The notes under the pieces: model-generated
The model's input: only the letters and a program-made list of their open reading frames with translations
Databases searched by the model: none
What the model was told of the DNA's origin: nothing
Origin: a virus
Taxonomy: Duplodnaviria > Caudoviricetes
IMG/VR virus record: IMGVR_UViG_3300009678_000039
Span: 1-38,013 of that record
Reading direction: 5' to 3' (one strand)
Length of the DNA: 38,013 nucleotides
Shown: positions 21,624 to 38,013 of the stretch, one piece after another
Layout of the letters: each line of letters starts with the position of its first letter
Position numbering within the stretch: the stretch's first letter is position 1
Position numbers and translations under genes: made by a program

Positions 21624-22259
21624 TTATGCCAATGTACATCTGAGATTGAATACCCAGGTGTCATTAGTGATTCTAGGAACTTCAGCAAACTTGTAACCAA
21701 CAGAGCAGTTCAGTGCTAATGGTCCATCAAAAATTGGTGGACGATAGATGAACGATGCACTGTAGCCATCTTGTTCGATTGCTGCATACGCTTCGCGCCC
21801 TGTCACAAATATATTTAGTACATCTGCGCCAAGTAAACTTGCGTTCAGTGTCTTACTACCGATTGAAGACAGTAAGAATCTAACGTTGGCAACTGTACCC
21901 CATTCAGAATCAAGTGTTGATTGCTGATTTGGGTAGTTCCATTTTTGTATAAATCCAGCTACTGTGTCTAATTGACCAATTAGGTCTGTATGACCTAGGC
22001 CAAAATAGGCATCACGAACTGGTGCAGTACCGAAGCGATTTTCGCCTTCAACTCCTGTTAAGAAGCTGTAAGCGTTATTGCCACGTAGTGTTCTAACAAC
22101 AAAGTCAACATCTGATCTTGTGATCTCAGTTGGATTATCGCCATTTGTACCGCCTACGCAGTTAATAAATGCCGCAGTACCTGCTAACATATCTCTCATC
22201 AACTCGTCTTCAGTCTCACGTAAAGACACTCCAAGACGTTGTGCAGCTTCATTAAGCAC
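21624..22259 (-). CDS. Major capsid protein (N4-gp56 family), exon 3
   Basis: VLNEAAQRLGVSLRETEDELMRD...EWGTVANVRF...DGPL...SVGYKF; continues the QNQDP of exon 2. Predicted spliced MCP is 88+16+211 = 315 aa. Confidence 0.9.
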   Translation of the reverse strand: MLNEAAQRLGVSLRETEDELMRDMLAGTAAFINCVGGTNGDNPTEITRSDVDFVVRTLRGNNAYSFLTGVEGENRFGTAPVRDAYFGLGHTDLIGQLDTVAGFIQKWNYPNQQSTLDSEWGTVANVRFLLSSIGSKTLNASLLGADVLNIFVTGREAYAAIEQDGYSASFIYRPPIFDGPLALNCSVGYKFAEVPRITNDTWVFNLRCTLA

Positions 22260-22966
22260 CACTCTGTTACTTTCAGCTCATGCTTACTGACCACTTTAGT
22301 GGCGGGATCGGCACTTCAACCAATCCTCTCATAGTTTCCTATGAGTTCAGACTATCGCTTCAAAAGGCGCTGAAAAATCGCGTCCCCTTTTGCCTTTGGA
22401 CTTAGTCGTTGCTGGTATTGAAACCACTCCGTTGAGTTTCCTCATTGTCATCCAAGCTCTTTCTCTTTCCGATTGGATTTCCGGAGTTATTTTGGCTCCA
22501 TTAAAGCTCACCCATTCTTCTACGAATTTGAGAGCTAACTCTGCTTGTTCATTTTTAACAAGTAGGTAAGGGAGAATTAGCTTGAGGAAACTTGTAATAT
22601 CCGATTTAGATCTTGTCATCCATCTGAACATTGGTCTTTGCTTTAAGTATGGTTTTTCTTCCCATACCTCACCAATTCCAGTTGTTTTTACAATGAGATC
22701 TAAAGGTTCTCTTCTTTGCATCCCAACTCGAATGCAAGGATGATAATGTGGATGAAAACATCCTCTTTTCGCTCTTTGTTCCATAAAGGACTTTGAAGCC
22801 TGTCTCATTATCATTATCGAACCTTCACCGTCTACTATTCCTGCTATATAAGCCAATTTTTCAACTTCCATCTGGTTACCTTGTGTTATATGTTCCGTTA
22901 AGATCATATATCATTTAGGCTTTCCAGTAAATCACCTAAGGTTTAAAGACCCCATATTAAATGGTT
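22260..22966 (-). mobile_element. Group I self-splicing intron (707 nt), MCP intron 2
   Basis: Exon AAGACCCU pairs with IGS GGGGUCUU (U-G at the splice site). P4/P5 CUGGAAAGCC...GGUAACCAG; R element GCAACGACUA (22412-22403); S element AAGCGAUAGUCU (22360-22349); P9 CUCAUAG-GAAA-CUAUGAG; terminal G at 22260. Confidence 0.92.
22347..22871 (-). CDS. Single-motif LAGLIDADG homing endonuclease (intron-encoded)
   Basis: LAYIAGIVDGEGSI motif and FLKLILPYLLVKNEQAEL. Start at 22871 (alternative 22907). Confidence 0.92.
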   Translation of the reverse strand: MEVEKLAYIAGIVDGEGSIMIMRQASKSFMEQRAKRGCFHPHYHPCIRVGMQRREPLDLIVKTTGIGEVWEEKPYLKQRPMFRWMTRSKSDITSFLKLILPYLLVKNEQAELALKFVEEWVSFNGAKITPEIQSERERAWMTMRKLNGVVSIPATTKSKGKRGRDFSAPFEAIV

Positions 22967-23014
22967 AGGGTCTTGGTTTTGGAGCGTTACTTGCTCATTG
23001 AGCAGTATGTAGGT
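22967..23014 (-). CDS. Major capsid protein, exon 2 (48-nt micro-exon, TYILLNEQVTLQNQDP)
   Basis: Fills the gap between ...DFYG and VLNEA..., restoring the YG.Y.........DPVL.E pattern expected for this MCP family. Not in the ORF track. Confidence 0.85.
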
Positions 23015-23053
23015 CAATTACTCCAAAACTCATTACGGCACCTACGCTGCTTT
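23015..23053 (-). other. 39-nt core-less group I-like mini-intron, MCP intron 1
   Basis: AAAGCAGCGUAGGUGCCGUAAUGAGUUUUGGAGUAAUUG; four in-frame stops; P1 UUACGGU/GCCGUAA; P10 GUAGGU/ACCUAC; ends in G. Confidence 0.8.
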
Positions 23054-23317
23054 ACCGTAAAAATCCATCTTCGCATCAATGTTTACCGCGGTCAACTGTT
23101 GAGCCGGTGGAGTAATTCCCCCCGTTCCAAGTGGTACCGGAGCGGTTGCCAATGGATTATAACGGCGCATCCTCAAATCTGTGCCACCATTACGAGGCAT
23201 AGCTTTAAGATCTGCTGGGATTTTATGTATCATATAAGGCACAGGGACCGACAGGAGCTTGTAACTGAAGCTCTGAGCGACGGGCGCTGGCAAAATATTT
23301 GTAGTTGTAATTCCCAT
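23054..23317 (-). CDS. Major capsid protein (N4-gp56 family), exon 1
   Basis: MGITTTNILPAPV...KLL...MPRNGGTDLRMRRYNPL....PL..G.TPP...L.......FYG is an N4-gp56-type N-terminus; follows the scaffold gene. Confidence 0.9.
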
Positions 23318-23383
23318 TACAAAAAACCTATAAGTTTTTGTGCCAGGACTTACATTTCAACTTTGCTCAAACACCTGAATTAC

Positions 23384-24139
23384 TTATGACCTTTTTGCAG
23401 CGTCTTGCATCTCTTTATACAACTGCTTCTTTAATTCTGGAGTTAGTCCATTTTCAAACATATGGGCATTACCAAGAGCAGACTGTTTTGCAACTGCGTT
23501 AACCGATTGCGGTTTCTGTGAATTCTTTATAGCCCTTTCTTTATCAGCTAATGTTGTTTTTGCAACTTGAGAACCCACATTTACCCCCATCATTTTTAAC
23601 GTATCATAAAGTGCTTCTGCCTGAGCATAAGGATCAGGGTTATGAGCTAAAGATGAAGCAAGTGCTGGCTTTTTTTGTTTTAAAAAGTCAATGTTTTCTT
23701 GCGTCACTATGTCATCAAAATCTGGATACTTTGATTTGATCCTATCCTCAACTGTCTCAGCTTCTCTTTCCCGAATGGCTTCTATCGCAGCTTCTTTGGC
23801 CATTTTCATTGCTATTTTCTTAGCAACGGCCTTTGTGATGATATCGTCATCTCCGAGCCGATCAAGCTCATCTACTTCTGGAGTAGATTGCTTCGGTGTG
23901 TGTTGCTGATGCAGCTTACTAATATAATCGTCTCTTTCTCTAATCTGACGATCTAGCTCTTGCATCTTGCGCCTAGCTTCTGTCCAATTATGTTCAACAT
24001 CTTTATGTTGTTTGGTATCGGCAGTAGCTGCGCTTTCTTTTTCTGCTACATCTGACGATTCAGGGGCTGTAGCGACTGCCTGCGAAGCGACGGGATTTTC
24101 TTCGTGCGCTTCTACGCTACTTGTTTCTTCTTCGGTCAT
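23384..24139 (-). CDS. Capsid scaffolding protein
   Basis: Acidic N-terminus, coiled coil and KYPDFDDIV; immediately upstream of the MCP; aagga precedes ATG 24139. Confidence 0.75.
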   Translation of the reverse strand: MTEEETSSVEAHEENPVASQAVATAPESSDVAEKESAATADTKQHKDVEHNWTEARRKMQELDRQIRERDDYISKLHQQHTPKQSTPEVDELDRLGDDDIITKAVAKKIAMKMAKEAAIEAIREREAETVEDRIKSKYPDFDDIVTQENIDFLKQKKPALASSLAHNPDPYAQAEALYDTLKMMGVNVGSQVAKTTLADKERAIKNSQKPQSVNAVAKQSALGNAHMFENGLTPELKKQLYKEMQDAAKRS

Positions 24140-30404: not shown

Positions 30405-31159
30405 GTTTTCATAGTGATCCAGCAATAAAAGAAAAGTATTTGACGCGTGTGATAGCGCACCGTAAAGCCGATAATATTATCCAAGGCACAGGATGGGTAG
30501 AAGGTCGCGGATGTGCGGTAGGCTGTACATTGGAGAATTACGATCCTTCGCTCTATCCCGTTGAGCTTGGCTTACCTGAATGGTTGGCGCGATTAGAAGA
30601 TATTATTTTTGAAAGTTTACCGGAAAAAGACGCTGTGGAATGGCCTGAGAAATTTTTAGAGGCTATTGCGGTTGGCGTGAATGTCGAGATGGTACGTCCA
30701 AAATTAGCAATCCGTAGATTAGATCGTTTGATTGTTTTTCAAAAAAGTCTAGCTGAAAAAAATCCATCGGTTAAAGAAGCGATCGAGCAAGTTATTGCGG
30801 CACTCGATTTAACAAAACAACTTCATCAAACAGAAATAAATGAACCTTTTTGTAATATAGAATCTGCTTGGAGTGCTGAGAGTGCTGCTAGGAGCGCTGC
30901 TAGGAGTGCTTGGATTGCTGGTAGGGGTGCTGCTGAGAGTGCTGCTAAGAGTGCTTGGATTGCTGCTAATAGTGCTTGGATTGCTGCTAATAGTGCTGCT
31001 GAGAGTGCTGGGAGAACTGCTAATAGTGCTGCTAATAGTGCTAGGGGTGCTGCTTGGAGTTCTGTTTGGGGTGCTGAGAGTGCTAACGGTGCTGCTGAAA
31101 GGGCTTCGTACAAACAAGAAGCCAGTGATTTATTAGAGTTACTGAAGGAGTGTGTATAA
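30398..31159 (+). CDS. Phage protein with Ser/Ala low-complexity repeats
   Basis: FH.DP.IK.KY..RV.AH..AD...GCAVGCTL...ELGLPEWLARLED N-terminal domain, then SAA repeats. Confidence 0.75.
   Translation: MLSFHSDPAIKEKYLTRVIAHRKADNIIQGTGWVEGRGCAVGCTLENYDPSLYPVELGLPEWLARLEDIIFESLPEKDAVEWPEKFLEAIAVGVNVEMVRPKLAIRRLDRLIVFQKSLAEKNPSVKEAIEQVIAALDLTKQLHQTEINEPFCNIESAWSAESAARSAARSAWIAGRGAAESAAKSAWIAANSAWIAANSAAESAGRTANSAANSARGAAWSSVWGAESANGAAERASYKQEASDLLELLKECV
30863..31100 (+). repeat. Coding tandem repeat of 9/12/21-nt units (e.g. gagagtgctgct, aatagtgcttggattgctgct)
   Basis: Encodes SAWSAESAARSAARSAWIAGRGAAESAAKSAWIAANSAWIAANS... Confidence 0.85.
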
Positions 31160-37720: not shown

Positions 37721-38013
37721 ATGAATAATTACATACCAATAGAAATAGAACAAAATATACCTACAACAATAATAGAAGAAGCATCAAGCACAGATATCCA
37801 AGTCGTAGATATCGATATAGAGCAGCCAATAACGCAGCTTACAGATCTCATTAGAGAGCTGTTACAAAGGGCTCAGAAATTGGTTGTAAGCGATTCTAGC
37901 ACTCATAATATCAATACGCAGCTATATAAACATGCACGAGAATGGCGCAAGTTAATAGATGCCAAAAGAAAAGAGATGGTAGAGCCATTTAGAGCAAAAA
38001 CCGCTGAAATCAA
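37721..38013 (+). CDS. 5' part of the junction-spanning 221-aa protein
   Basis: MNNYIPIEIEQNIPTT... continues in frame into 1..496. Confidence 0.8.
   Translation, partial: MNNYIPIEIEQNIPTTIIEEASSTDIQVVDIDIEQPITQLTDLIRELLQRAQKLVVSDSSTHNINTQLYKHAREWRKLIDAKRKEMVEPFRAKTAEI
37891..38013. repeat. Terminal direct repeat, right copy
   Basis: Identical to 1-123. Confidence 0.95.

Follow-up and report, generated by a model that had tools for sequence, protein, structure and literature searches.

The capsid gene and its two insertions

The window analyzed here is the whole 38,013-nt stretch of viral DNA, a phage genome in which the portal, terminase and major head genes are encoded on the minus strand; as assembled, it is probably a complete circular genome of ~37.9 kb. 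An exact direct repeat of 123 nt is found at its ends (1-123 and 37891-38013), and imperfect internal repeats with 76-80% identity are located in two ORFs (30865-31096 and 7902-8254). The major capsid gene is split by two insertions, a short insert and, starting 48 nt downstream of it, a complete group I intron (Table 1). Removal of both leaves 948 nt encoding 315 aa without an internal stop, and the spliced protein is 89% identical to the intronless capsid protein P0004. Among 38 homologues of 315 aa, the residues at the insert site are FYGTY in 33, FYGTF in three, FFGQY in one and FYGQY in one, with extra residues in none, as anticipated in the first-pass annotation of the window, which had expected contiguous FYG-TY in intronless capsid proteins. 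The four matches found among cultured phages show at most 27% identity.

Table 1. Elements of the split major capsid gene (window coordinates)
Feature	Position	Strand	Details
Major capsid protein exon 1	23054..23317	-	88 codons, ending in ...FYG; phrog_1357 major head protein, profile 23-114
Mini-intron	23015..23053	-	39 nt, core-less; preceded by U, terminal G, 4 in-frame stops
Mini-intron P10 strand, GUAGGU	23040..23045	-	pairs with the first 6 nt of exon 2 (ACCUAC); sequence and covariation
Mini-intron internal guide sequence, GCCGUAA	23033..23039	-	P1 with exon UUACGGU, 23054-23060; covariation
Mini-intron tether strand	23020..23032	-	core GUUUUGGAG, 23021-23029; one bulged A
Exon 2	22967..23014	-	48 nt, TYILLNEQVTLQNQDP; contains P10 target, tether target and helper P1 exon strand
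Tether target in exon 2	22975..22985	-	core CUCCAAAAC, 22976-22984; ends 8 nt ahead of the 5' splice site of the helper
Complete group I intron, inferred helper	22260..22966	-	707 nt; preceded by U, terminal G
Helper guide sequence	22946..22953	-	8-bp P1 with 22967-22974
LAGLIDADG homing endonuclease ORF	22347..22907	-	inside helper; single-motif, 186 aa; I-CreI family, best E 1.2e-12
Helper P7	22350..22407	-	GACUA 22403-22407 with UAGUC 22350-22354; sequence; same helix by covariation in relatives
Major capsid protein exon 3	21624..22259	-	third of the three pieces of the capsid gene

The in-frame stops of the short insert are UAG, UAA, UGA and UAA. Given that the insert is unchanged both in one contig of run X1, which is possibly the source of the window, this contig showing zero differences across the region, and in one contig of run X2, which bridges 22772-23400, likewise with zero differences, and that 86 different inserts occupy the same site in viral contigs, an assembly error was ruled out as its source. 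The last 7 nt of exon 1 are the exon strand of the P1 helix of the insert, with a U.G wobble at the exon 1/insert junction, and every base of the insert is assigned to P1, P10 or a third helix, the tether described below, so that the P3-P9 core is absent; a profile of related group I cores does not match the insert. The first-pass annotation, made from the letters alone, had described the 39-nt insert with its four stops, the 7-bp P1, the P10 pairing and the last base G, and had found no room for P3-P9; all of this, including the coordinates, was reproduced. By these features the insert, hereafter the mini-intron, is a group I-derived intron that has retained P1, P10 and the terminal G in the absence of a catalytic core, which makes it a group I-like substrate and not an autonomous member of the group.

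The guide of the 707-nt intron is followed by UAAA and then by P3 (22935-22941 paired with 22393-22399). The G-C pair of P7 belongs to the guanosine site of group I introns; P7 with this pair is intact in 75 of the 77 helpers for which both ends are available, and the two misses, one of them the helper of the window, are due to input cut at 185 nt. The families in PHROGs that match the endonuclease ORF are labelled HNH, as opposed to the LAGLIDADG assignment made from its sequence, and the 3' end of this ORF passes through the intron core, with the stop just after P7. The helices P3, P4, P6, P7, P8 and P9 are paired in 96-100% across 44 compact relatives of 185-235 nt, all of the same gene family, and carry compensatory changes. 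A profile of these relatives matches the window only at 22957-22915 together with 22481-22261 (E 6.9e-17), within the 707-nt intron, so that no second group I core was found in the genome. The Rfam group I models gave no match at E<=1 in the window, finding neither of the two introns, and none in six loci with compact introns. The capsid family of loci L016-L200 is an intron hotspot, in which more than 20 sites carry group I introns, up to five in one gene; some are compact (193-235 nt) and others endonuclease-bearing, and P1 is joined to P3 via UAAA without P2.

The mini-intron family and its neighbor

At least 174 distinct inserts of 28-79 nt were identified in related phage capsid genes; these counts refer to distinct sequences and not to independent lineages, and the scans took exon motifs from a single capsid family as anchors. 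In a protein-similarity sample of 80 loci, a short insert at this codon boundary was found in five, one of them identical to that of the window. Two pattern scans of viral contigs, in which only exon codons were fixed and any glycine codon and any 28-58 bases were allowed, yielded 107 loci with 86 distinct inserts. All 86 are preceded by GGU and end in G, neither of which was fixed by the pattern, whereas GGU is present at the site in only 15 of 51 mini-less clusters. A metagenome scan with the guide and terminal G fixed and 14-74 bases allowed yielded 99 loci with 88 distinct inserts of 28-56 nt, 43 of them new. Scans anchored on the helper, counted with fixed exon lengths after non-capsid rows had been left out (3/86, 8/63 and 3/57), provided 45 further mini-introns, the longest of 79 nt; 21 of them lie at a second site. 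The mini-introns of this second family (L318, L321, L332 and 18 other loci) are found in a diverged capsid clade, five bases upstream of the main site and with a 31-nt exon 2; their guide passes into the tether with almost no linker, and the helper P1 is 7 bp long.

Of the 128 mini-introns analyzed in depth, 100 shift the reading frame and the other 28 contain stops, so that their removal is obligatory. A P1 helix is formed by five exon/guide combinations, namely TACGGT/GCCGTA, TATGGT/GCCATA (4), TTCGGT/GCCGAA (11), TTTGGT/GCCAAA (3) and ATTGGT/GCCAAT (21), with a mismatch in one mini-intron (L396). Position 3 of P10 is a Watson-Crick pair in 126 of 127 homologues (83 C-G, 18 G-C, 16 U-A and 9 A-U), compared with a maximum of 78 in 10,000 shuffles; one mini-intron has no P10. 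The covariation in related capsid genes that the first-pass annotation had proposed to look for is thus present in both helices.

These observations bear on explanations that do without RNA splicing: the ribosome might bypass the insert or shift frame, the capsid gene might be dead, or the assembly might be wrong. Spliced RNA was not seen: runs X1-X4 are DNA contigs without exon joints, X5, guessed to be RNA, holds only pieces of a relative that are unspliced and do not cover the mini-intron, and the exon joints in X6 are DNA of intronless relatives. Furthermore, the length of the insert in the window is a multiple of three, as such explanations would allow. Against them stand the occurrence of insert lengths in all three frame classes, the invariant terminal U and G, the covarying P1 and P10, the number of distinct inserts, the identity of the DNA in two runs and the flanking exons, which are open and conserved (exon 2 residues are conserved in part because the search pattern required them, and their conservation is not counted as evidence); we accordingly regard this whole group of explanations as very improbable. 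Translational bypass elements of the T4 gene 60 type have matched take-off and landing codons around a stop. This candidate was rejected: the homologues require G and then T with no insert-coded residue, and the ends of the inserts vary, only the U and the G being fixed.

A full intron is located 26, 48, 50 or 86 nt downstream of the mini-intron in 128 of 129 cases (85/86 viral and 43/43 new metagenomic), the helper being resolved by its 5' end only in 8 viral rows and in the metagenomic rows, and set by eye in L233. The sole mini-intron without a helper (L101/L234, the same contig) lies on a contig that ends 50 nt after it and was left out of the 128. In the protein-based sample clustered at 95%, an intron is present at that position in 5/5 mini-bearing and 8/51 mini-less clusters (p=3e-4; L019, a cut contig, was left out of this base-rate count). 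The co-occurrence with a full intron, which the first-pass annotation had expected to be strict, is thus nearly complete. The dependence is one-way: 35 of the 138 introns at the 26-nt site have no mini-intron.

The tether and the predicted shared core

A third helix, absent from the first-pass annotation, connects the mini-intron to exon 2. This tether of 9-12 bp lies flush with the P1 of the helper; in the window, its two strands are the cores given in Table 1, paired with each other. In the minimum-energy fold of 22940-23066, the P1 of the mini-intron, the tether and the helper P1 follow in series, and the fold of the stretch from exon 1 to the helper P1 has z = -3.42, with 1 of 200 shuffles as good. 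The tether target shifts with the position of the helper across the 26-, 48-, 50- and 86-nt classes, and in 122/128 mini-introns, across all four classes, 7-9 nt separate the end of the longest tether helix from the 5' splice site of the helper; for the 86-nt class, the tether energy is -15.4 kcal/mol at the proper window versus -3 to -4 at the other three. Since pairing of a mini-intron with its own exon is stronger than with the class-average exon in 127/128, compensatory change is implied. Comparison with shuffled mini-introns gave p<=0.05 in 123/128. An earlier candidate, pairing of the 3' part of the mini-intron with the P9 region of the helper, was dropped when covariation pointed to exon 2.

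The geometry of this stretch is nearly constant. The linker between guide and tether is 3 nt long in 118/128; that of the window has 2 nt and a bulge. The helper P1 is 8 bp in 123/128, the gap between the tether and the helper P1 is zero in 103/128 with a 1-nt overlap in 24/128, and the P1 of the mini-intron, the tether and the helper P1 all have a pair probability above 0.5 in 127/128. From the end of the tether to the 3' splice site of the mini-intron there are 3-17 nt by strict contiguous pairing, mostly 4-9. At the site occupied by the helper of the window, an 8-bp P1 is found in 7/7 introns directly behind a mini-intron, in 0/8 with an intervening intron and in 6/39 without a mini-intron (7/7 versus 6/47 for the rest, p=1e-5, calculated on distinct sequences with kinship uncorrected). 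Among the available lines of evidence, the tether appears to be the strongest for a role of the neighboring intron; it is predicted to set the P1 of the mini-intron at the P1 of the neighbor.

The explanation that we consider best, with a probability of roughly 0.86, is that the complete intron starting 48 nt downstream provides the core for excision of the mini-intron in cis, with the predicted tether as the anchor. Under this scenario, the tether and the helper P1 would stack end to end, and the P1 of the mini-intron would leave this junction via the 3-nt linker at the point where the UAAA of the helper enters P3, so that either P1 could dock. Hinged at the same point as the P1 of the helper itself, the P1 of the mini-intron could dock in the active site of the helper, its terminal G could enter the P7 site of the helper, and P10 would align exon 2 for ligation. 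Group I splicing requires a docked P1, guanosine in P7, and P10, as described in the sections available from PMC10020454. No hold of the P9.0 type is evident for the terminal G of the mini-intron. Excision of the mini-intron by the neighboring full ribozyme had been proposed in the first-pass annotation, and this proposal is supported by covariation, co-occurrence and the tether, the catalysis itself being inferred. The description of the mini-intron as a parasite of an intron fared less well: its dependence on the neighbor is supported, but the term is too one-sided given that the helper P1 is co-adapted, and the helper could presumably no longer be lost as long as the mini-intron stays.

With regard to the order of events, we incline tentatively to a sequence in which the helper splices first and stays on the ligated exons via its guide; its freed 3' G would then be the nucleophile at the 5' splice site of the mini-intron, as in laboratory trans-excision-splicing (TES). 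This order is favored because it has a laboratory precedent, in which the terminal G of the ribozyme is the first nucleophile (PMC2532722, from the portion of the text available), because the native reaction of the helper would not have to be blocked and because there would be no risk of skipping exon 2.

The layout of mini-intron P1, tether and helper P1 recalls P1-J1/2-P2-P2.1 of Tetrahymena, and the 3-nt linker (118/128) in particular recalls its J1/2. The latter resemblance speaks for a variant with the same cis helper and tether that differs in order only, in which the mini-intron is removed first by free guanosine, with the tether and the helper P1 acting like the Tetrahymena P2 and P2.1, and the helper splices itself afterwards. 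We consider this variant a substantial possibility, although the less probable one. All three of its helices can form before the core is transcribed. The undocked P1-P10 of the Tetrahymena-type arrangement is described as stacking on P2, touching P2.1 and travelling about 50 A (PMC10020454, sections available). On the other hand, the native P1 of the helper would have to wait, or transcripts would be lost, and the helper's own terminal G would compete, resulting in exon skipping of the kind reported for Twort orf142 and the Coxiella 23S rRNA in the accessible part of PMC10136302. P10 of at least 4 bp can be formed with exon 2 in 69/77 and with exon 3 in 11/77; P10 thus distinguishes exon 2 from exon 3, and this preference would limit exon skipping.

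A further feature, which would suit retention of the helper after splicing and hence speak against removal of the mini-intron first, is a segment of the helper P1 loop complementary to exon 3. It was found in 48/80 helpers at the 26-nt site with a mini-intron versus 7/36 without one, a comparison that is confounded by clade; it also occurs without mini-introns and is absent from the helper of the window. This segment covaries with exon 3 through Watson-Crick changes in 26 of 32 rows and through wobble in 5. The introns at the 26-nt site in L406-L483 have P1 loops of 35-65 nt, with a conserved UCUUUGA motif before the segment that pairs with exon 3; a search for a consistent partner of this motif in the long helper P1 loops found none.

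The cis scenario with a tethered helper was also weighed against splicing of the mini-intron in trans, for which any group I intron set free from a transcript of the phage or its host could suffice, or which could involve a protein; the tether would then serve only for local folding. Group I cores do act on separate substrates in vitro, according to the available parts of PMC4094466 and PMC2532722. Splicing in trans nevertheless leaves unexplained why the tether is flush against the P1 of the first downstream intron at four distances, why the 8-bp P1 is confined to that intron and why mini-introns without a neighbor are absent, and we consider it improbable. Even less probable is autonomous splicing, in which the mini-intron and adjoining exon sequence would together fold into a minimal ribozyme comparable to the 67-nt PaSSU intron of Phialophora. 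PaSSU-type introns have P1, P10 and a pairing of their middle with the 3' exon (PM), and their splicing in vitro is reported in the available text of PMC3160393. In mini-introns of 28-29 nt, however, P10, the guide, the linker, the tether and a tail of 4-5 nt use up nearly all of the sequence, with no room for P7; a GACU/AGUC helix with both halves is found in only 1/128, and an autonomous element would need no neighbor.

Known systems, origin and spread

To our knowledge, each group I intron is regarded as having a core of its own. Group I cores that act on other segments are known from engineered systems. The comparative data indicate that the element described here is real, conserved and widespread, and their support for a shared ribozyme appears unusually strong. 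We consider it very probable, at slightly lower confidence than excision in this locus, that the mini-introns represent a class of non-autonomous group I "satellite" introns that is natural and widespread and depends for its removal on the ribozyme of the next, co-evolved intron. The system would be new as a whole, with parts that are known group I components. The first-pass annotation knew of no described phage example, and none was found in the open-licence literature, where a natural helper-dependent group I intron of any kind was likewise not found; nor is such an intron described in the available parts of papers on CPR rRNA insertions, Bastillevirinae introns, Thiomargarita and organellar introns.

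Several known systems share individual features with the mini-introns. The PaSSU introns of Phialophora (fungal SSU rDNA, 63-78 nt) are likewise core-less, with a U.G-ended P1, P10 and a pairing of the intron middle with the 3' exon (PM, which corresponds to the tether of the mini-introns), and their splicing needed downstream sequence. They differ in that a P7 of their own is credited to them, that they end in U and reside in eukaryotic rRNA, and that no neighboring helper is described in the sections available (PMC3160393), whereas the mini-introns are 28-79 nt long, end in G (86/86), have no room for P7 and are tethered to a full intron in phage capsid mRNA. In TES ribozymes (PMC2532722) and spliceozymes (PMC4094466), as in the proposed helper, the core removes a segment outside itself, and in TES the terminal G of the ribozyme is followed in step 2 by the G of the substrate. 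According to the parts of these sources at hand, they are laboratory constructs in which the guide comes from the ribozyme, whereas the mini-intron is natural, would be excised in cis and has its own P1/P10 and a tether; by analogy, they would appear to be only a partial precedent, given that the ribozyme supplies the guide. The LittleE intron interrupts a capsid gene, as here, but is described in the available text of PMC3706429 as a single ordinary group I intron with its own core. The phage group I introns used for comparison share with the window, as far as their descriptions were available, the location in a capsid gene, a LAGLIDADG ORF, short exons between introns and splice-site cross-talk. 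In Twort orf142 and the Coxiella 23S rRNA, the introns have their own cores and cross-talk removes an exon (PMC10136302, accessible part), in contrast to the arrangement proposed here, in which one core would serve two introns and the exon is kept. The group III introns of the Euglena chloroplast resemble the mini-introns as short degenerate self-splicing derivatives without a core but belong to the group II lineage, and no tethered neighbor is described for them in the sections of PMC8393795 available.

If the proposed scenario is correct, one RNA active site processes two introns of one mRNA, which would represent a natural step from self-splicing toward a splicing machine used in common; the helper would, moreover, be locked into the gene by its satellite. 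A natural family of this kind would show that non-autonomous group I introns exist and would provide a natural, testable model of how substrate and catalyst became separated, a step invoked for the origin of machine-run splicing. Given that compact helpers are about 195-210 nt and their mini-introns 28-56 nt long, a test would fit in one transcript of <400 nt; examples of such pairs are L108, with a 56-nt mini-intron and a 208-nt helper, and L160, with 28 and 199 nt, respectively. The succession of P1, 3-nt linker, tether and helper P1 could furthermore serve as a compact design for RNA editing by excision. For annotation, the inserts make capsid genes of uncultured phages appear broken, and both the mini-intron and its helper are missed by Rfam.

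A clue to the origin of the mini-introns comes from L333, where the mini-intron's own site is occupied by a complete group I intron of 217 nt that has the same guide and a P10 (the insert lies upstream of the match at 1501-1529), and a second full intron follows 26 nt after the first. This arrangement is likely to be the ancestral state, and, given the shared site and guide and the presence of a P10, it suggests that the core was lost from a full intron at this site. Spread by co-conversion with the homing endonuclease of the helper appears likely. In a capsid tree built from residues 125-312 of 103 rows by a quick method with weak support, the presence of the mini-intron requires 18 changes, compared with a shuffled mean of 32, and at least 4 are forced by well-supported branches. 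The nearest rows to the window in this tree have no mini-intron. In a comparison aimed at co-conversion, exon 2 of L018 is 94% identical to that of the window, against 68-73% elsewhere, but the mini-less L012 and L014 also reach 94%. The tree pattern fits repeated gain or loss, for example by hitch-hiking on the homing of the helper.

Among 13 loci in genome assemblies, whose organism labels span unrelated phyla, the mini-intron is present in none and full-size insertions are present in seven. In 22 loci of terminase relatives, neither a group I intron nor a mini-intron was found. One of the terminase relatives (L493) contains an in-frame, intein-like insertion of ~510 nt after residue 379.
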